Origin: Girardia tigrina
Lineage: Eukaryota
Reading direction: 5' to 3'
Assembly: GCA_001938485.1 (NCBI GenBank)
Contig: MQRK01225780.1
Span: 48,656 to 112,655, forward strand
Length of the DNA stretch: 64,000 nt
The notes under the pieces were generated by a model. That model ran no database searches, was not told the origin of the DNA, and worked only from the letters and a program-made list of their open reading frames with translations. Position 1 is the stretch's first letter; every line of letters begins with the position of its first letter. Positions 2,658 to 42,235 of the stretch are shown here, piece by piece. The position numbers and the translations under genes are program-made.

Positions 2658-3499
2658 TCATCGACAAGAACAACTACTGACAGACATGTCTTTAAATTCC
2701 CGTAATAAAGCATCTCCTTCATTATTTAGATATAATAAAGTTTCTGGATGTAAATGGTAAGGCACACAACAGGGTTTTGGAATAGAAATATCTTTCAAAC
2801 CATGCACCAACAATTGAATAATAGCATGATTTGTCGCATTGAAAACGTCCGATAACGGATATGGACAATTACCTTTACAATAAAAAGCATTGTAGCTTTG
2901 AGGGGCAATTATCCACTTGTTCCAGCCAACTTCTTTAAAAGTTACAATTAATGGATACCGTTGACAATCTTCTTTTTGACCAAAAACATAATTAGATATA
3001 TCACGTTTAGTTCGAGTTTGGTACAACTTTTCAGAATCAGAAACAAGGGGAGATGAATTTGGATGATGATTTACTGGGGTTTTGTTTCTGTAGAATGTCA
3101 CTATGTTGGCATGATACAAATACAATGTTTTAGTTGGTTTCATTTGATTTCTAGAATCAATTCGTTTGAATGTGGATTTATGTTGTTTCCATAATCCAAA
3201 CGTTTTTATATAGAAAACAGAACTGTCTAAATAATTAGAAATGTCAATAGAAATCCATCCGTGTTTGTCAAATGAATTTGAATTGATCAATTTCTCTTTA
3301 AAAAAGTGAAAATGTTCATTGAAAATCATTAAAATCATAAATAATGAATCATTATTATAATTTGAGGTTTCTTGAATCAAGCGTGGAAACAGTCTCTTGT
3401 TAATTCTTAGTTCTCTTGCAATAGGAAAACTTTTGTGTGAATCGGCAAAGGTTTTGAAAATCAGTTTGTGAATACCGACCGCCGACCATGTGTGAATAT
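2658..3499 (-). CDS. bmp2/4: BMP2/4 (TGF-beta family ligand), coding exon 2: prodomain end, RTKR furin site, 7-Cys mature domain
   Basis: RTKR followed by C..GWNKWIIAP..Y.AFYCKGNC..NATNHAIIQ..PCCVP..CSCR is the BMP2/4 cystine-knot signature. Acceptor TTTTTTTAAG ends at 3500; phase 1 keeps the frame of the 2658..3380 ORF (117-nt offset, no stops). Confidence 0.96.
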
Positions 3500-4844
3500 C
3501 TTAAAAAAATGAACTATGTTAATCATTATAATGTTTACTTACTAATATTATAAAGAATAAGGTTAGGGGGTGGTATTTCATGCACAGTTTATATTACTAC
3601 CCCCCAGGGACACGCAAGTAAAAGTAAATATTATTGAAATGATAATATGACAATATAAAATGTTAATTGTTGACCAAAGAAAAACCATTTAAAGATAAAA
3701 GCATTTAATCATTGTTCAAATGTGTACTGAGAGTCACCTTGATTAAATTCTATAAAAGTGATACATAGTTTTTTTAATAAAACAAAAAGAAAATAATATT
3801 TTATATATTTGATATTTGTGAAATGAGATATAATTTTTTTATATTCAGTCAATTTCTTTAGATAAAATTAACTTTAGAAAACGACTTAAAAATTTTTTTG
3901 TTAATGTAAAAATTAAAAAAAAGGTAAAAATATTTAATTTTATTTAGATCTTATTGGATCATAAAAAATAAATTATAAATTTGAATTAAGAAAAATAAAT
4001 ATAAATAAATATTTTTGAGAGATTTTTTAAAAAAATAAATAAAATTTTCATTTTTCTAAATTAAAGTCCCTTTAATGACATTAAACAATTAATTAATACT
4101 TGAATAAATATTATTTTAAAGATTTTTTTTGGAGATGGAAAATTTTAAATGTTCCTAAAATTATGATAAAATATTATTCAATAGGAAAATTTTATCACGC
4201 ATTATTTAAAAATATTATTAAAAAAGTGTTTTATTTTGCCATTCCTATAGAAAACGTAATAAATTGTAAAAAGAAAATTATATTCTATTGTTTGAAAAAA
4301 AAGCAAAAAAAATATTATTTAAAATTGAAAATTTCAGTAATTCATATAGGAATAATATAAAAAATATTACGAATTATTTAATTAAAATTTGTTTTATTTT
4401 ATACAATAATTTATGATAATATTTGAATTTGAAACAAAATAAAAATAAATAATAAACAAAAACTATAAAATTTAAAAATTTCTGTATAAATAAATATTTT
4501 ATTTCCAAAAAAATATTTTTCAAAAATAGTTTAATAAAAATATTTTACAATAATTAATTATATAACGGTTTTCTTTTAATAATTAGAAAAAAATTATTTA
4601 GTTATTATCCTTTATTTATTGATTATTATACAATTTAGAATGATTTATTATTTATTTTAAATGATATTTATTTGAAAAATAAAATTAGTAACATATTTGT
4701 TTTAATCAATTTTAAAATTATAATTTTATTATAAATAATAATATTTGTTTCATACAAAGTAAAATCGAAAAAAAACAATAAAAAAAGATTTTATTTTACA
4801 AAATTAAATGGATTAATTTTTGAAGGAAAACAAATAGAATTTAC

Positions 4845-5211
4845 TTCGTAATCTTTGGCAATGAATCATTTCTATTGGTCCTAAATACTGAAATTTGCCT
4901 TCAATCTCAACGGAAAAATTATATAAATTAGACCGATATTTGTCGTAAAGAAATTTCATAAAATCTGGTACAAAATGCGGCAGTTTTTCCGACAATTCGG
5001 CATATTTTTCATTGTCACCGATTTCTTCCGGTTTAAGTCCCATATTTGATAGAAGAATCTTCTGTAAATTATTGCGCACTTTTTCTGACTGATTTTCGCT
5101 ATTATCACTGAACATTCGTTCATAGAACGAATCTCGTGCATCGTTCGATTGTGTTAGTTTGAATAGAAAACAACAAAAAACTTGAATATTAATAATTCGT
5201 AATTTTCTCAT
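4845..5211 (-). CDS. bmp2/4: BMP2/4 coding exon 1: signal peptide and N-terminal prodomain
   Basis: Signal-peptide-like start; LLSNMGL...VPDFMKFLY is the BMP prodomain latency motif. Donor CGA A|GTAAA at 4844. The joined CDS is 367+842=1209 nt (402 aa) with a 1345-nt intron. Confidence 0.92.
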
Positions 5212-5438
5212 GGAAAATCTTTTGAAATGGGATTAAAAAGTTTTTCAAAAAAAAAGAAAAAAAAACAAAAAAAAGCAATCGTTGTTTAATTTTCTTCTTT
5301 CACAGTGTCAACACACAATAGGAAAATATTATCACAAATTGCAAAAAAAAATTTTGTAAATTTTTAATATTAGAATTTTGTTTTAACATTTTGTTTGTTA
5401 ATTATCAGAATTTAATTCGATATTAAAAACTAAATTTG

Positions 5439-9399: not shown

Positions 9400-11482
9400 T
9401 ATATATTAAATTAAAAATAAGTTTAAACATTTAATCTAAATTTAAATCAAATTAGTTCCAAATAATAAAAATTGAAGTATTAAATCAAAACAGCACACAA
9501 CATTCAAACTCAAAACATCAAACAATCTAAAAGTTCTTCTCAACACTAGAAGATTTCTACCAAAAAAATCTAGGAGATAAGAAGCTATCCAAATATAAAT
9601 AAATTTCAAAAACTTTAAGGCAAAATTAAATCCTTAAAAATAAAATAAAAAGGAAATAATCCCGAAAAATCGGAAGAAATTAAATTCAAATTAAACGGAA
9701 AAGCAAGTAGATTCAACTTCACATATCTCAAAATCGCTTATATCAAATTATTGCTTATCATAAATTTTTTTCAAAGTCCCGATTTTTTCTCCATAAGTTT
9801 CAAATTGATTAAAAGACGTACGCATTTCGCCATTTAGGCATCTTCAATATAAGAAAAAAGTGATTAATTAATATTATATAGTTAAAAACTTTTACATAAT
9901 ATGTCTCAAAATATGCTTTTAAAATATTTTTATGTCATTTAAAAACATAAATATGATTGGATAAATCAACTTGCTCGTTTCAGGTTGGCTTATGATGATT
10001 AATTAACAATGCTTCAGTAATAATCCTCACATGATTTGTGCAAAATTATTTAAAATTATTTTTAAATCTTTATTATTTTAAAATAATTCTCATCACCAGC
10101 ACATCTTTCCTTAAATGCAATAAAAGCTGCTCAATCACTCTCGACTTTGACTATAATTCCAGGTGATATGAGTAAATTGTAACAACCACTGGTTTCAATG
10201 CGAAGATCAGGTCAAATTAGGAGAAATTAAAGAGATCCAGGTGCCATAAATTCAACAAAACGTGAAAATGAGAAAGGCTTCGTATTCTACTGACTATGAA
10301 TAGATTCTTTCAGCAGATCACTCAATTAAAACTGAATGTGTAATTAATGGGTTTAAAAGGCAAACATTTTAAATAGCTGCTGCTATGTAGATGGTGATAA
10401 ATGAGCTAAAGATAATGAAGCCTACTTTGAGATTACATTGAAGATATCTTATAAAATCATACCGAATCCTTTATATATTTTTTGGAATACTTAACAGTAG
10501 ATTCAGGGACACGAAATTTGTTAATTCTGTGTATTACCCGCGGGAGTAGTTCATTTGGGTACCGTCGTTTGGGGCTTCATTTGGGAGTTTTTCATTTTAT
10601 AAATTCTGTTGAAGTAATAAATTTTGTTTTAAGACATCATTTTTTCAAACTTATCCTATTAAATTATCTATACTAGGGATTTAAGGGTACTTTCGATGTT
10701 GCTTATACGATCTCAACAATACAGTCCTTATCATACTTTTTAACTTTACGAAGATACCAACACAGTCAAACTCTCCCTTACATGGAATACTAATGAACAT
10801 ACTTATAACTTCAAAAGTAAAAAACACTTATTCATTCTTATTTAACAAAAACATAATAAAAGTATTAATTCTGTAAGAAAATCCGCGACATTTGAATCCG
10901 GATTCATTAAATCAAAACAAATCTGACTTATAGAAAGAAGTTTCAAAAATGCTGAAAAATATTATATCAATTTTAAGTTTGTTACTGATTTAATTCTTTT
11001 GATTAACGACAAATTTTACAATCTGTTTTAAACAATGAAAATAATTTTTATTCCAATTTTTCCAGACACCTTATTTAAATGGAGATTTTATTTTAATGAC
11101 AATCAGAAAGTAACAGGAAAAGCAAAAATAATGGCAATGGCGTCATGATTATCAATTATGCTTCATGATAATGGCAAATGGAAAAGGAATGGTAAAAACA
11201 GAACAATTTGAAAAATTAAACAAAAAATATAAAACCAATATGCAAATCAGTCATAAAGCGGTATTTGAATATTACTTTCAGAATTATCTAATTTATTTTC
11301 AACTATTCCCATTCAACTTCCATCAGTACTTAATTTAATTTTCTTTTAAATTTAATTTTTAAATGTATTAACAAATAATTTCTATATAATTTTAATGTAA
11401 TTTTTCTTAATTTTGAGATTAAGAGTATTTTTAATTGAATAGCAGTATATTTATAATGTTCATCAATTAAGCAAATGTTGAT

Positions 11483-12657: not shown

Positions 12658-12846
12658 TTTTAAGGCTAATACATCATTTTATGGGGTTTTATTCAGTTGA
12701 ATTTGTAAAAAAATCGGAATATTTTCAGCAGCAATGAAAAATAAGATTGTCGCTATTAAGAACACCTATCTAGTTTTCAAATAAACTTGAAAAAAGATGG
12801 CAATTTTTTATTATAAACAAATAAACGCCATTTAAAAATATATTTT

Positions 12847-12891
12847 AGGATAATATATTTCGACGGTTTAACTGTCATCATCAGATCACTG
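12847..12891 (-). ncRNA. Minimal type-I hammerhead ribozyme (inverted PLE arm)
   Basis: Minus strand AGTGAT CTGATGA T GACAG TTAAA CCGTC GAAA TATATT ATCCT. One helix II mismatch relative to the copy at 15066. Confidence 0.75.
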
Positions 12892-15065
12892 ATTATGTTC
12901 TTTTTTTATTGCTTTTATATAAGAAATGAATGATTGTGTAATCACTTACGTAAGTCTAATCGAAAACTCATAACAAATTAGTTGAGAGTGCTGTTTGAAC
13001 ATTGATTTTAGGATCACATGATCTTATCAACAATGCTTCACATGACACTCTCCCAATAATTTTTAAAGTGCTTGCACAAAATCTTAAAATCATTTATGCT
13101 CATATTACATTTACACACTTTTATGCTCAGCAATATTACTCTTTCCCCCTTTTTTGATTGTGTTCTTGGACTCGTTTGTCGAGATGACGGGTAGTCTCTC
13201 CGATGTATGCGGCATTGCACTTATTACATTGTATTGATAAACAATGTCCAAACACAATCCTAAAGGAGTATGTGATTTATTGCAAAACATATTCTCAACT
13301 TTAAATGATTGAGACATAATTTTTAAATTTAAAATGTTATTTGTTGATTTCAAGATCGAATTCTTGAGGTGTTTAAACCCTCGGAGTAAGGTAAGCTTAG
13401 AGTATACCCAGGTGTAAAGCAGTTTTCAATGTTTAAACTATTAATTTTTTTTTATTTTTGATTTTTTCTTTTTCGATTATTTTATCTACAGTCTCGCGAG
13501 TGAGTCTATCTATGATGGACTTAGAGTAACCGTTATTATTCAATAACTTGCTCAATGTATCAATACTTTTAATAGATTCTGAAAATGTGGTATAACAAAT
13601 CTTTGATCATATTCCTTTTATATTTAAACTCACAAAAACTGTTTAATATCTAGATGCGAAGATAAATTATTTCATTCCTAATGATTTTATTTGTAAGGGC
13701 AGTTTTGAGTTTGTGAATTCCATTGCTAATTTTGAAATACGAACTGAAAATGATTTTAGGGTTCCTTTGATGTATCGAGTTTATTTACTAATTTTCCGTT
13801 ACAGGAAACCATCGAATTATGTTGTGAACTTTGGCGTAGGAATAATTTGGACAATTCTGATTTAGATGAAGTTACTTTTCGAAAACACTTAACATTTGCT
13901 ACTTCAAATGTCCATTTTCTATTTAATGGTGAATGGTACAAACAAATAAATGGGGTTGCAATGGGTTCACCATTGGTTCCGACGTTAGCCTCTATATTTC
14001 TTTCTTCCATTGAAGAAAAAATAGAATTGTTTTTAGGGAAAAAACCACTACTTTATAAGAGATATGTGGATGATATTATTCTAGTCTATGAATCTCGAGA
14101 ACATGTGTTTCCTTTTCTAGATTACATGAATTCGATTCAACCAAATATAATCTTTACAGTAGAACAGGAAATAAATCGAAAATTACCATTCCTTGATTTG
14201 TTAATTGAAAGGAAAAATGATCATTATGAAATTGAAATATATCGAAAGAAAACTGATACTGGTTTATACACCTCCATAAACAGTTTTTGTGAGTTTAAAT
14301 ATAAAAGGAATATTATCAAAGGTTTGTCATACCGCTCTTGGTCTCTTTCTTCCACGTTTTCAAAATCTATTAAAAGTATTGATACATTGTAAGCAAGTTA
14401 TTGAATAATAACGGTTACTCTAAGTCCATCATAGATAGACTCACTCGCGAGACTGTAGATAAAATAATCGAAAAAGAAAAAATCAAAAATGAAAAAAAAA
14501 TTAATAGTTTAAACATTGAAAACTGCTTTACACCTGGGTATACTCTAAGCTTACCTTACTCCGAGGGTTTAAACACCTCAAGAATTTGATCTTGAAATCA
14601 ACAAATAACATTTTAAATTTAAAAATTATTTCTCAATCATTTAAAGTTGAGCATATGTTTTGCAATAAATCACATACTCCTTTAGGATTGTGTTTGGACA
14701 TTGTTTATCAATACAATGTAATAAGTGCAATGCCGCATACATCGGAGAGACTACCCGTCATCTCGACAAACGAGTCCAAGAACACAATCAAAAAAGGGGG
14801 AAAGAGTAATATTGCTGAGCATAAAAAAGTGTGTAAATGTAATATGAGCATAAATGATTTTAAGATTTTGTGCAAGCATTTTAAAAATTATTGGGAGAGT
14901 GTCATGTGAAGCATTGTTGATAAGATCCTAATTGTTGATGTGATCCTAAAATCAATGTTCAAACAGCACTCTCAACTAATTTGTTATGAGTTTTCGATTA
15001 GACTTATGTAAGTGATTACATAATCATTCATTTCTTATATAAAAGCAATAAAAAAAGAACATAAT

Positions 15066-15110
15066 CAGTGATCTGATGATGACGGTTAAACCGTCGAAAT
15101 ATATTATCCT
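15066..15110 (+). ncRNA. Minimal type-I hammerhead ribozyme in the PLE 3' terminal repeat
   Basis: CTGATGA (15073-79), extra T, 5-bp helix II GACGG/CCGTC, GAAA (15096-99), palindromic helix III ATATAT, predicted cut after AUU at 15105, helix I AG(T)GAT/ATCCT. Confidence 0.85.
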
Positions 15111-16049
15111 AAAATATATTTTTAAATGGCGTTTATTTGTTTATAATCTAGTTTTCAATATTTTTATTAGTATTACATCAAAATTAAATTTTTTTGGATT
15201 CTATTTCTGGTGAGATGGGATCGATTTGTCATCCCAACCAGTCTGCAAAACTGACCAAATGGTTAACTGGTTTTTAATTAATGTGATTTTATGGCTGTTT
15301 TTTTATTACGGTTTTCTAATTTTTTATTCTTTTTGTAGAATTTATTTTAGTTTTTTTTGTTAAAAATAATTAATATTTATTATATATATGTAAAAAATGG
15401 TTCTTTTAATGCATTTATGAAATTGTTAGTATAGAGTTTTGTTTGAATATTTAAAATAAGAATTGCGGTAACGCAACAAAATGAATTGTAATTTTGAAGC
15501 AAATTCAAAATAAAACATTAAATAAAAATCAATTAATTGTTTTTAATTTAATTTATTGAATTTTAAAAATCAGAAAAAATGTTTTACTCAGATTATGATC
15601 AATTTGATGAAAATAAATTATTACAATGGGATCAAATTGTTCGTCATAAAAACAGAATCTCAGACGATACGTTTGTGAGTTCTCCGAATTGTCGTGAGTC
15701 CGTTGGCGACATTTTCAATGAAGCTTGTGATCAAGAATTTTCATATTAGGATAATTCATTTGATTATCGACTAAGAGGAAATTATAACGATTTCCGAGAA
15801 TTCCGAGTGGCGCCGGACAGATGGACCGATTACGACATGGTCGAAGACGCATTTTACGGCCATGTAATTATATTTGAATGGAAACCGGTCTTCATTAGAC
15901 CAAGAATTCTGATTGTCTAATGAAATGTCATATTGTGCTTTCAATCTTACCAGAGGTAGGAATTTTTTAGATATATTCCAGACTGGATTAGTCTACGGCT
16001 ATGGCTGAGTGCAGCAACCACGCAACATGGATCGTTCAACAATTACGTA

Positions 16050-32203: not shown

Positions 32204-32959
32204 GCCAGTCCCGACTGGAGTAACCATACCTTTATTGGTTACTTCCAGTCCGGTAACCGATATAATAAATTATAGAAATCATTTACATATAATCATTATA
32301 ATTCAAGTGTTCGAAAATTTTATTAACTAACACAATATTTATTATTCGATTCAAGTATTCATATATATTATAATACCCAATTCTAATTTTCAACTGTTTT
32401 CTCTAAAAAATAATGTATCGGTTAAATGATCCAAAAATCCAAGATAAATCTTTCATTCATTGGTCTTCTACTTAGACTTCACATTCTTGAACATTCTGTA
32501 CTGAAAGCAACTTATTTTTTTTTAATTTCATATGCATCCTTTCCTTTTTTTGTGATTGATTATAAAATCGTTTTAATTTTTTCATTATTTATATGATCAA
32601 TTATTTGTAATAAAAACATCTTAATTTATATTTGTTATTCATACTTTTTATTCCTATTGGTAAATTCATAAAATAAATCGACTCCACTATCAACCATTGT
32701 TATTTACTATTAGTTTTTTATCTAACTATTCATTGATTCTATTTTAGAAAGACAACCACAGTTACTCATATACTAGCGTCCTAACAAATATTTAATTATT
32801 TTTGTGTTCTTGGAAGCTCGAAAAACTATACCCAATTTCACTACTATTATTATTATTGCTATGCACGGATAAGGAATGATGGCCCATGGAAAAGATAACT
32901 GAATGAGTAAATTGTATAATAGATGAGACAATAAATAAAAGAACTAAAATAGTCAAATG

Positions 32960-33058
32960 ACAATGTTTGTTAAGGAAGCCAACCGATTCGATATCTCAAT
33001 TAATATACTCTCTTAAAATGTAAAAATATATAATGAATACGAACTTTATTACTGACTT

Positions 33059-33098
<40 letters not shown>

Positions 33099-33148
33099 NN
33101 NNNNNNNNNNNNNNNNNNNNNNNNNNNNNNNNNNNNNNNNNNNNNNNN

Positions 33149-33192
<44 letters not shown>

Positions 33193-33291
33193 AAGTCAAT
33201 AATAAAGTTCGTATTCATTATATATTTTTACATTATAAGAGAGTATATTAATTCAGATATCGAATCAGTTGGCTTCCTTAACCAACATTGT
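32960..33291. repeat. Inverted repeat (~104-bp arms, ~5 mismatches) centred on (TA)n with an assembly gap
   Basis: 32960-33063 is the reverse complement of ~33187-33291. Confidence 0.85.
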
Positions 33292-34095
33292 TGATTGATA
33301 TTTGATAATGAAGTTGATGAACTTCATAATAGGCTTTCTAAAAATGGATTTAATAAAAAGTATTTAAATAAAATCATAAAAGATACTGTTGAATCCATTT
33401 ATTTAAAATCAAATAATACATCAAATATAACTTCGGGAAATGACATTGATAATCAAATGATTATCAATCTAAAATTACCGTACTCAGACAGAGCAAAAGA
33501 ATTCAATCGATTTTTAGAACATCGAATACCTGTTGGCTTAAAATTGAGTGTAATCTTTGTAACTAATAAATGCCGGAACTATTTTTCCAACAAATCAAAA
33601 ACTCCTTTGTGTATTAAGGTAAATCTAGTTTATCAATTTAAATGTCGCAAGTGCGAAGCATTGTACATTGGAGAGACAAGTCGTCATCTCCGCACTAGAA
33701 TTGCTGAACATACTTAATCGAGTAGAAATCGCTCGATATTGAGCCATATTAAAAGATGTAAAGGTAATCTTATGGATTACAATAAAGATTTTAAAGTGAT
33801 TTTAAATTTGACACAAATTATGAAAAGAGTATTGCCGAAGGATTGTTAATAAAACATCATAAACCATGCTTAAACGTGCAAGGTGATTCATCTAATCATA
33901 TTAAAGTTTTTTAAATATCATTAAAATACTTTTTTTAAAAAGCATGTTTTTGAGACGTATGATGTAATAGTTTTCAACTATATAAATAGTAATTAATCAC
34001 CTTATTTCATTGCACTGAAGATGCCGAAATGGTGAAACGCGTATGTATTGTGAATAAATTTAATATTAAAAATGGCCTTTGTTTTCATTATTATT
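33292..34095 (+). mobile_element. Penelope-like element 3' fragment (linker + GIY-YIG + terminal repeat), second family
   Basis: LSKNGF...LKLPY...KSKTP....NLVYQFKCRKCEALYIGETSRHLRTRIAEH, followed by a 3' UTR containing a hammerhead. Confidence 0.9.
34006..34054 (+). ncRNA. Minimal type-I hammerhead ribozyme
   Basis: CATTGCA CTGAAGA (34015-21) T GCC GAAAT GGT GAAA (34034-37) CGCGTA|TGTATTG. Palindromic helix III ACGCGT, GUA cleavage triplet ending 34043, helix I CATTGCA/TGTATTG. Confidence 0.85.
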
Positions 34096-34124
34096 AAAAA
34101 TGTCATTAGCAGTTCTAGATAATA

Positions 34125-35824
34125 CAGTGTCGCTCAAATTAATCCATCAGTACATTTTTTTTCATATTATTTAAATTTGTACAAAATTTACCAAACCAAC
34201 CATTCTTGAAATTTTACATGTAACTAACTTAAACATTGAGTTAATTTATCAATAAAAATATCTCGTAAAAAATAAAAATTGAAATATTTATGTAAGATTT
34301 TCAAAAAATTTGGTCGCTCAAATTAATCCGCCATTACGTAATATCAATAAAATTTTATCATTTCTGTAAAAATCTATTAAATTATAATTACATTATTGTT
34401 TAAGAAACCAAGACAATGAAAATCCTAATGAAATTTTATTAGAAAAAGACAGACCGAATAACGGTTATTAATATTTTATGGGTCCTCCTTTTGCATCAAT
34501 ACAAGCTTGAATTCGTCGAGGCATACCATCGATGAGAACATGACAAGCAGCCTTAATGTCCTGATCATTGTTCCATATATATTTTATTGTATTTATGAGT
34601 TCTTCTTTGGTATTTATATGCACAATGTGAACTTTTCTTTTGACAAAAGCCCATAAATTCTCTATTGGAGAGAGATCTGGGCTATATGGAGGCCATTTTA
34701 AGACAGCAATGTTCTGGCTTTCTAGAAATGAAGTCACAGACTTGGACTTATGACACGGAGCATTATCCTGCTGAAAAATATCAATCAAAAATGAATGACG
34801 TTCATTCATTAGGGGTAACAGGTTCTTTTTAAGGATATTTATGTACTTTTCTGAATATATGGTTCCTTCAACTATTTCTAAGACTCCTGTTCCATCTTTT
34901 GAAAAGCAGCCCTGACCATAATTCGTTTAAGAACTGGTCGATGTTGCCTAGTGTGTTCATTTTGAATTAGTTGGCCTTTTCTTTTTCTTATATATTGTGC
35001 TCGTGGAGGACATATATCAAAAGCAGATTCATCGGAAAAAAGAACCTAAAATTCAATGAAAAATATTATTACGTAATACAGCTATTATTTATTCTACCTT
35101 CTTCCAAAGAAAACCATTCCACTTTTCGTACAATTTAAACCATTTATATCGTACATCTTTTTGGCGTTTAGACAGTGAAGGTGATATTAGAGGTCGGTAT
35201 GAAGATAAAGTACTTCTTATTAATGATCGTTTCATGGTATTAAGACTCACATTCATGGCATTCAAACCAACAGCAGTTTGTATTGTACTTGAGGTTGCTT
35301 TAGGATTTATCAAAGCTTGCTTCACGAGTGCCCTGTCAATTCGATCAGATAGTTTTCTTTTTCTACCACATTTTACATTTCGTTGCGCTCCAATTTGGCC
35401 GGTTTCTTTGTATCTTTTTATGATACCCGATATCGTTGATCGAGGGATATCAGTATCCAATGAAATTTGAATCTGTGTCTTCTTCTCATGATAGTTTTTA
35501 ATAATTATTTCACGGATAGATAGTGGTGTATCCATAAGGGCAGAATCTTATTAAATAATATAGATGATCAGTATCATGTATAATAAAAAGAACAAAATTT
35601 TATTGATATTACGTAATGACGGATTAAATTGAGCTACCAAATTTTTTGAAAATCTTACATAAATATTTCAATTTTTATTTTTTATGAGATATTTTTATTG
35701 ATAAATTAACTCAATGTTTAAGTTAGTTACATGTAAAATTTCAAGAATGATTGGTTTGGTAAATTTTGTACAAATTTAAATAATATGAAAAAAATGTACT
35801 GATGGATTAATTTCAGCGACACTG
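34125..35824 (-). mobile_element. Tc1-family IR-DR transposon (Minos-like) with an intron-containing transposase
   Basis: TA|CAGTGTCGCTCAAATTAATCC...GCGACACTG|TA; ~230-bp TIRs with inner direct repeats. Exon 35535-35098, 52-nt GT-AG intron, then VLFSDES...FQQDNAPCH...WPPYSPDLSPIENLW. One frameshift near 34911. Confidence 0.93.
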
Positions 35825-36283
35825 TATATATATATATATATATATATTAATTTAACCAGACAACAGAAAGATAAATAGAAAACGTGTTATTTAATCACAG
35901 AAATTTAACTGTACAGAAAGCAGTTTGAACTAACCGAAATTGTTAATTACTTCGTTTCAGGATGGGAAATATAGTTGCTTTGGTCCTTTAACCAGCTTCT
36001 TAAAATTTAATTTGTGAAACTTTCTTTGTTGAATTGGGCAGATGAAAATCGTTTCTTCGGTCAGTATCTTTTCTTCATATACTGAGTGAATTTTCACAAA
36101 GAAGAAAACATAGAAGAAAACAAAGAACCAAATATATAAGAATAAATGAGGTAAAAAGATTATAATACAAATATGAGCATAAATATGATATTATAAAGAA
36201 GAATACAAATGAGACGATTTAAGGCATTTTTACCTCTTGTTTTATGTCTATTGCGTTTGTTATTTCAATATCATATTTATTAA

Positions 36284-38497: not shown

Positions 38498-38545
38498 TTA
38501 GCAGCTGATGATGATCAAGGAGGATCGAAATATGTATATGAAAAT
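38498..38545 (+). ncRNA. Degenerate hammerhead ribozyme motif
   Basis: CTGATGA (38505-11) T GATC AAGGAG GATC GAAA TATGTA. The core and helix II are intact; helix I pairing is largely lost. Confidence 0.55.
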
Positions 38546-40139: not shown

Positions 40140-40900
40140 AGAGTAAGGATTAAAAATTAGTTTTGATTTTATTTTAGGAATTTAATTTCATTAAAATAAC
40201 TTTAATTCTATTAATATGGCTTGAAGCCGTGGATATTGAAACGGAAAATATCGGATGATTGTGTTACAAATTTTATTAGACGTCATTATATCTTTTCTGT
40301 ATTTCATTTCCAAAATAATCTTAATTTTGTGGTAAGACATTTTGAATTAAACATTCATTCTAAATACACGAGAAACTAACCTTTCTCAATCACTTAAACT
40401 CATTTTAACAGCTATAAAACATGATAGTCTTACCTTTTAAACCTTCGATACTATTTTGAAAAACATAAATTTGTCAAGAACCAAACATAATATAAAGGTT
40501 TTTGCCAGTTCAATGTAACCATCTTTTGGGTATAAAAGTTTTTCCTTCCTAAAATGCACATCTATTCACAAAACAGTATAAAGCATTCAATTGATAATAA
40601 AAGTTGGACTTAAAAGTAGTAAGTATATAAAGATTATATACAAATTATTTTCTCACAGAAAAGGTAAATATTAAGAAATTCATGAGAAATTGTATTATGA
40701 GTAGCGCATATTCTTGTTAGATCGATTTGTTTTTTCTTTGGAGAAAAAAATTTTCTTGAAATTTTATGGAATAAGCTTATAAGCTTGTTATTTATAAAAT
40801 AATATAATATAATATAATAAAAATAATATAAATTAAATTATATTACACATATATATATATATATATATGTGTAATATAATTTATATATATATATATATAT

Positions 40901-41077
40901 AACATTAAGATTTAATGGCAATTTAATGGCAAAAAAAAATTAATTGCGTAATAGTCAAAGTGCCATATAAATGACTTGTAATTTGAAATTTACTTCACAA
41001 CTGATGATGCCGTAATGGCGAAATAAAAAATTTTGGGAAATAAAAAACTTTTAAAATGGCGTTTGTTATTTTAATTT
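40901..41077 (+). mobile_element. Solo ~180-bp non-coding PLE terminal-repeat unit between (TA)n tracts
   Basis: TATAAA (40966), hammerhead, AATAAA and AAAATGGCGTTT, the same layout as the coding PLE ends; flanked by (TA)n on both sides. Confidence 0.75.
40994..41039 (+). ncRNA. Minimal type-I hammerhead ribozyme
   Basis: TTCACAA CTGATGA (41001-07) T GCC GTAAT GGC GAAA (41020-23) TAAAAAATT|TTGGGAA. AUU triplet ending 41032; helix I pairs 6 of 7. Confidence 0.75.
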
Positions 41078-41241
41078 TATATATATATATATATATATAT
41101 TGGGTTCGTGATTAAAATCCAAAGTCATTATTTGCAACCTTTATTTCTAATACAACTTTCATTATTCAAACAAATTTATGAGGAACAATATCTCAGTTAC
41201 ATAAACCAGATTTTAAATTTCTAAATATAAATAATAATATC

Positions 41242-41281
<40 letters not shown>

Positions 41282-41669
41282 NNNNNNNNNNNNNNNNNNN
41301 NNNNNNNNNNNNNNNNNNNNNNNNNNNNNNNATATATATATATATATATGTTATTTTATTCAATTTTGCATAAATCATATTTTGTTTTGTTTTACTAATT
41401 TTTACAATGTTTATTAATTGAAATATAAATTTAGATCTTTAAAAATATTTTAATGGACAAGTCCTGTAAATTTAAAAAAAAAATAATTTTTTCTTTAATT
41501 TTAAATCATTCAATTATAAATTATTTCTTTAATAAGACTTTCGTTGACAATTAAATTCAATAAACATTATGATTTTTATTTTAAATAGTGTTACAAGATA
41601 TATCAAAATCTTCTTTACAACATTCTTTAACTCCGAAACTGTTATTTTAATTATGATTTTTTGAAACCT

Positions 41670-41945
41670 AATTTTTATAGAAAGTTGTTCCAATTTAATT
41701 AGTAAAATTAAATTATCATTACACTATAATTTTTTATAAAAACTTATTTCATTTTAATTAGTAAAATACTATCTGGGAACTATAATTTTTATAAAAAGTT
41801 ATCTCAATTTAATTAGTAAAAATATTACGTATAAACCATAATTTTTTATGAAACCTTATTTCATTTTAATTAGTAAAAATATTATTTATAAACTTAAATT
41901 TTTTTATAAAAAGTTATATCATTTTAATTAGTAGAACATTATTTT
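41670..41945. repeat. AT-rich minisatellite, ~57-60-bp unit, ~5 copies
   Basis: Recurring ...TAATTTTTTATAAAA.TTAT.TCA.TTTAATTAGTAAAA at ~41700, 41760, 41815, 41875 and 41930. Confidence 0.75.
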
Positions 41946-42235
41946 TAATTTATCTCAAATATAAATATGATTTTTAATTTAAAAATATCAAAAATTTACA
42001 GTTCACCAAAAAGAACCCTTAGTAATATATATAAGCAAATATGATATAAATTTATTATAAGTACTCTTATTGGTCGAAATCAAATCTAAACATTTAATAA
42101 GAAGTACCAATTATTATTTTAAATTACACTAAAAAATTAAATGTTACATTTAAATTTCTTTTTTTTTATTGCGCATCGAAACATGCCCCCATCAGTCATT
42201 CACATATTACAAAAAGACGGTTGTAGGGCATTTTA

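Follow-up and report, generated by a model that had tools for sequence, protein, structure and literature searches.

Organization of the locus

The window (the whole stretch of 64,000 nt analysed here) is AT-rich animal DNA from a fragmented assembly of 1.43 Gb in 255,254 contigs. Its minus strand carries a gene of the BMP/TGF-beta family at 2658-5232, with the TGF-beta-domain part at 2661-3500 (mature domain PF00019, E 7.6e-31), and broken LTR-retrotransposon-like frames at 58528-61317, in which a protease, an RNase H and an integrase-like part were recognized by inspection. The feature under study is a short module at 40901-41077. The earlier note, made from the sequence, had described it as a TATA-like box, a hammerhead, AATAAA and AAAATGGCG between (TA)n tracts, and all of these parts are present. 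From left to right, the layout is (TA)n, an inverted tail, an 11-nt duplication, an A-tract, a pLTR running to a short end at 41078, and (TA)11.

The left flank contains a perfect palindrome of 50 nt (40834-40883), about 15 unique bases folded back around (TA)n, which is possibly a snap-back or fold-back copy of target DNA made during insertion. The left (TA)n itself (40882-40901), the target microsatellite, adjoins the tail end of an inverted arm (40900-40925, minus strand). This arm is a copy of the 3' tail of a Penelope-like element (PLE) family, at family positions of about +83 to +108 from the hammerhead core, and it corresponds to ORF codons ~11-18. At the inversion junction lies an 11-nt tandem duplication (40910-40931, plus strand; units 40910-40920 and 40921-40931). 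The sense arm (40931-41078, plus strand) is a 5'-truncated pLTR, which begins at the A-tract following the ORF stop codon and ends at the "short" 3' end of the family. On the same strand it contains a TATA-like box (40966-40971; compare PMC3846280), about 30 nt 5' of the hammerhead and with a putative promoter role; a minimal type I hammerhead (40994-41039), with a predicted cut after 41032; AATAAA (41039-41044), a putative polyadenylation-like signal; and the start codon with the first ~7 codons of the PLE ORF (41056-41078, ATG at 41056). Within the hammerhead we distinguish the core (41001-41007), stem II (41009-41019), GAAA (41020-41023) and an A5 loop (41025-41029). The right target microsatellite, (TA)11 at 41079-41100, adjoins the short 3' end, and with (TA)n on both flanks a TSD is unreadable.

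Because 40900-40925 is the inverted family tail (~30 bp), both of the ends adjoining (TA)n are 3' ends of the element, and the orientation of the two arms is observed directly. The left (TA)n had been taken as a plain boundary; the tract is there, and what had been overlooked is that the left 26 nt of the module are an inverted tail. As the 5' boundary of a unit this tract was rejected, since it adjoins a 3' end in inverted orientation; copies with truncation lengths of 43-707 also have TA on their 5' side. Moreover, the last 23 nt of the module and its first 26 nt, the latter inverted, are the first codons of the PLE ORF, and the proposed non-coding nature of the module is not confirmed.

The right neighbour (41101 onward) was likewise rejected as part of the unit, being a separate repeat family. 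This high-copy, non-coding repeat (41101-42018, ~0.8-0.9 kb; 1,526 candidates for its first 145 nt) is sharply delimited, contains a (TA)n in its interior and terminates in a 6-bp inverted repeat (GGGTTC...GAACCC); it appears MITE- or HINE-like. PLE copies are inserted into other copies of it (L004, L033).

Relation of the module to a coding PLE family

The earlier note was right that no RT or EN domain sequence lies within the module at 40901-41077. When the unit was searched against the genome, 1,473 candidates came up and 40 of them were scored; apart from the self match, the best of those 40 were 91-94% identical and began at query positions 11-36, and query 1-39 matches the opposite strand just past their 3' ends. 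Upstream of most copies we found a frame with RT (YVDD), followed by a C-terminal GIY-YIG-like domain; the YVDD motif and the GIY-YIG-like motif with Cys/His were read in pieces from L046 and other copies. The closest database relatives of the family protein are RVT_1 proteins of 760-820 aa, with 40-44% identity. A 349-aa family fragment (L046) gave no match in Pfam, and its homologues match RVT_1. No intact full-length copy was seen among the sampled copies, and the window copy has no domains.

In tandem copies, the ATG of the module opens a long RT/EN ORF; the unit is accordingly a pLTR into which the first codons of the ORF fall. The pLTR continues into the long ORF in L025, L109, L110, L113, L120 and L130, with endonuclease sequence upstream in L025 and L110. 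Membership of the window copy in this family is a direct observation, and from its sequence 40931-41078 reads as the pLTR of a coding PLE family with at least 876 ribozyme copies genome-wide, which does not agree with the claim of a stand-alone unit. The family can be assigned to the EN+ PLEs with a C-terminal GIY-YIG, and is probably Penelope/Poseidon-like, with Hydra as another possible clade, a placement judged from linker cysteines: the RT-EN linker shows no extra cysteine motif, unlike that of Neptune/Nematis as described in PMC8557442.

Copy boundaries across the genome

Boundaries were compared in two samples. The core sample combined the first 30 pattern matches in contig order with 40 loci chosen among 100 listed of 876; the 40 were picked for upstream room, and the sample is mostly from short contigs. 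It holds 73 distinct cores at 70 loci, 18 of them cut by contig ends or gaps and 55 in which the 5' junction can be seen. The breakpoints of these 55 occupy 53 distinct positions: 38 copies reach the ORF stop or beyond, 17 end inside the pLTR, and at least 20 adjoin an inverted piece. About 7-9 of the 55 are coding-free like the window copy, each with its own start (-14, -36, -43, -60, -64, -65 and -66). The independent sample, drawn from 382 exact matches to a tail 24-mer, contains 61 tail-bearing arms at 60 loci, and in the 43 with a visible junction the starts are spread from +71 to -1092.

The breakpoints are not purely random, because 5' junctions cluster in the A-tract in which the window copy starts. 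This tract lies behind the ORF stop, 60-77 nt upstream of the core, and its 18 nt contain 10 of the 55 junctions against 2.4 expected (~4-fold; Poisson p 2e-4, computed post hoc and with imprecise positions in A-tracts). The earlier note had favoured a small retrozyme-like element, had given extreme 5' truncation of a PLE as the other option, and had held that the former would fall if all hits were 3' ends of longer coding PLEs with random truncation points. The copies are essentially of that kind, being the 3' portions of a coding PLE truncated at scattered 5' points, and the departure from randomness is the A-tract clustering; the second option is supported. We rejected the possibility that 5' ends are set by hammerhead cleavage, as tail arms starting 3' of the core are scattered from +13 to +71.

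At the other extremity, the family has two 3' ends ~30 nt apart, which are observed directly: short (28 of 62 ends scored) and tail (23 of 62). A few copies (L106, L118) end ~20 nt past the tail, possibly at a third, minor 3' end. TA repeats adjoin 57 of the 61 tail ends, an observation that supports an insertion preference for TA microsatellites, as the earlier note had supposed. Neighbouring core pairs are head-to-head in 17 of 19 cases, the other two lying on the same strand with ORF or flank plus a gap between them.

The hammerhead of the window copy

In the window the core pattern is marginal, with one match and the same count reached in 6 of 100 shuffles, and an Rfam scan at gathering score returned 0 matches. 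Despite this, the motif is to be read as a real hammerhead. A 34-mer over the core has 876 exact genome matches against 0 for a control, and five other cores in the window, which belong to other PLE families, keep the conserved boxes and have stem II sequences that differ yet pair. The hammerhead has a type I minimal core, an extra base before stem II and a G-C closing pair, with a palindromic helix III in the family; stem II of the window copy is short (3-4 bp). Family hammerheads are mostly single dispersed motifs from truncated PLEs. In unconstrained folding, the hammerhead fold was not the MFE structure (z = 0.41).

Most family copies carry a CATG palindrome in the helix III loop, which A5 replaces in the window copy. 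The earlier note had pointed out this loop and set it against the palindromes of other copies in the window; the A5 stands, and the palindromic loops compared belong to different PLE families, A5 being a one-off change from the CATG of its own family. The loop 31-mer occurs once in the genome (searched with up to 1 mismatch), and this uniqueness is observed directly; as a single-copy feature, the A5 loop was rejected as a subfamily marker. Because the private loop sequence (41020-41034, plus strand) is a 15-nt direct repeat, at 93%, of sequence lying 17 nt downstream (41037-41051), a separate template slippage likely replaced the palindromic loop.

The predicted helix III duplex has -4.6 kcal/mol in the family versus +2.2 kcal/mol in the window copy, where predicted monomer closure of helix III costs 1.8 kcal/mol; the prediction is that the A5 loop prevents dimers from folding. 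According to PMC4209133, metazoan PLE hammerheads probably act as dimers via the helix III palindrome, and single motifs gave no cleavage. Given this dimer mode and the loss of the palindrome, the hammerhead of the window copy is predicted to be inactive, and the copy as a whole, which has a single hammerhead and lacks both the palindrome and an ORF, is predicted to be inert.

Inverted arms and their junctions

On the element RNA, the two arms of the window copy do not overlap and are separated by 7 nt present in neither, which is the geometry of twin priming. The junction 35-mer, like the loop, was directly found to be unique, with a single genome occurrence (up to 1 mismatch searched). Six tail matches deviate at the same base as the window copy, and the other five are point variants that continue normally. 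Contigs from 4 of the 24 listed public sequencing runs contain the family; their sequence parts from the window copy at 40931 and 41023, where it shows the family palindrome. No contig of these 4 runs spans the locus, and the empty site was not seen in them.

Inverted pairs combine one tail end with one short end in 9 of the 10 classifiable pairs picked by core (13 found, 3 unclassifiable) and in 8 of 8 picked by tail (12 found, 4 unclassifiable). Overall, tail+short accounts for 17 of 18 classifiable pairs and tail+tail for none of them (naive p ~0.01 for each sample, with copies not proven independent). The pairs outside this rule are L024 (short+short), L118 (both arms past the tail) and L173 (tail on both). 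L188 shows the same tail-only arm as the window copy, and L181 and L191 are mirror-image TA-bounded units of ~200 nt with other junctions. Most inverted pairs consist of arms that overlap on the RNA.

Proposed origin by priming on two strands

Taken together, we consider it very probable that the window copy is a single, severely 5'-truncated insertion of a coding PLE, made of a sense pLTR and an inverted 26-nt tail arm and likely primed on two strands. Both nicked strands of a TA microsatellite would prime reverse transcription, one at each initiation site of the element. One cDNA would start at the tail end and stop after ~26 nt, while the other would start at the short end, ~30 nt upstream, and run for ~145 nt to the A-tract. 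Repair would then join the two short cDNAs and leave the 11-nt duplication, as in L1 twin priming (PMC2837659).

Several properties reported for PLEs are consistent with this scheme. In vitro, the PLE protein cuts AT-rich DNA and extends both strands, its RT starts at two adjacent sites that delimit the tail, and hammerhead cleavage is unnecessary for insertion (PMC11167929). Inverted 5'-truncated copies with a tail on one end are standard for PLEs (PMC8557442), and the completion of PLE insertion is treated as an unresolved mechanism (PMC11167929, PMC8557442). Counting against the scheme, the overlapping arms of most pairs would need a tandem transcript or two RNAs.

The pairing of one tail with one short end tentatively suggests a rule, which we put forward as a possibility that may well prove wrong: a PLE RT dimer could prime both strands of the target, using the two initiation sites of one RNA, and the window copy would be the extreme outcome, with the cDNA primed at the tail coming up against the second primer. 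If true, genomic stubs like this one would record a fixed-site twin-priming mechanism for PLEs. The pairing and the non-overlapping arms give a prediction testable in the existing in vitro PLE system. Among the titles found in the incompletely covered literature, none extends twin priming to PLE tails; the accessible text of PMC8557442 does not contain "twin priming", nor that of PMC3846280 "twin".

Comparison with known insertions and alternative explanations

The architecture of the window copy has already been published for PLEs, and the copy is ordinary in this respect. EN+ PLE insertion units (Adineta vaga Pen2a, PMC3846280; scheme in PMC8557442) share with it a pLTR with TATA box and first ORF codons, 5' truncation with an adjacent inverted 5'-truncated copy, a ~30-bp tail on one end only, and a microsatellite or AT-rich target. 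Compared with them, the window copy is an extreme minimal form, without the ORF body, with the tail alone as inverted arm and with an unreadable TSD. Poseidon PAc of Anolis (PMC11167929) has the same two RT start sites delimiting a tail inside the 5' end of the ORF, the same AT-rich targets and the same extension of both strands, which here are suggested by genomic comparison alone; its ORF starts inside stem II, whereas that of the present family starts downstream of the hammerhead. L1 twin priming (PMC2837659) likewise yields two inverted, non-overlapping segments with a small internal deletion and a very short 3'-most segment; in contrast to L1, the window copy lacks poly(A), and its second priming site is fixed in the element and not at a random internal position.

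A variant within the same family assignment keeps the PLE origin, but derives the inverted arm from two RNAs (dual priming) or from fold-back or self-priming on an antisense template. Dual priming leaves the same footprint in L1 as twin priming (PMC2837659), self-priming on an antisense template has been proposed for head-to-head PLE structures (PMC3846280), and both the overlapping arms of most inverted pairs and the fold-back palindrome in the left flank would suit such an origin. We nevertheless judge it rather unlikely: with two independent RNAs, random pairing of ends would give ~50% mixed pairs instead of the 17 of 18 that are tail+short, the arms of the window copy are non-overlapping and nearly abut, and the arm junction is without a palindrome.

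It is improbable that the structure arose through misassembly at this locus, or that a longer inverted insertion was later shortened by a deletion between AT-rich tracts. The number of contigs, the repetitive flanks and the public contigs that stop short of spanning the locus leave some room for it, and the small duplication at the junction, which is placed in an A/T tract, is of the sort that repair deletions leave. However, a misjoin of repeats would not create new, single-copy sequence such as the junction 35-mer and the loop 31-mer, a second tail-only arm exists (L188), and after a later deletion the near-abutment of the arms on the RNA would be a coincidence.

Two-strand priming of a coding PLE also has to be set against the retrozyme-like unit proposed in the earlier note. 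Non-LTR retrozymes consist of units of 150-450 bp in tandem, contain type I hammerheads and give rise to circular RNA (PMC7229834). Activity requires two hammerhead units in succession, and an origin from pLTRs, with monomers left behind, has been proposed (bioRxiv 10.64898/2026.07.22.740005). The window unit resembles them in its ~180 bp size, low GC, type I hammerhead and relation to a pLTR (PMC7229834; bioRxiv 10.64898/2026.07.22.740005). Unlike them, it lacks tandem units and fixed boundaries, has a single hammerhead and is continuous with a coding PLE family; this hammerhead is of the minimal type, and not the canonical retrozyme form with a 6-bp helix I, a 4-bp helix II and a loop-loop contact. 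We regard as very improbable the reading of the module as one lone monomer of a non-autonomous retrozyme, in which a fixed unit of ~180 nt multiplies by itself via self-cleaved circular RNA and is mobilised by PLE proteins. In favour of this reading, the module combines TATA, a hammerhead and AATAAA but no RT/EN domains, several further copies are coding-free and TA-bounded (L034, L047, L181, L191), 5' junctions cluster at the A-tract, and a short-read assembly could collapse tandem arrays. Against it, the junction and loop of the module are single-copy, coding-free copies share no start, none of the 19 neighbouring pairs is a short head-to-tail repeat, two head-to-tail junction patterns (gap ≤14 nt, a narrow test) had 0 matches, the left end is an inverted, ORF-derived tail, and monomer excision, which takes at least two hammerheads, is impossible with the one core of the family that the window holds.

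The window copy is one among many hundreds of dead PLE ends and of little importance as an object; its use is as a warning that a lone pLTR stub within (TA)n can be mistaken for a retrozyme.

Other PLE ends in the window

Another PLE family is represented at 12810-15147 by a head-to-head insertion whose inverted arms measure 871 bp and each carry a hammerhead; it contains an RT fragment (13760-14392), and outside the part that they have in common its two ends are unlike. The stretches 33150-34120, 9802-10074 and 38505-38543 are PLE ends that belong to other families and carry hammerheads and palindromic loops. One of these ends starts in a (TA)n with a fold-back (32947-33303) and adjoins a Tc1-like element (34122-35827) with 235-bp inverted repeats.
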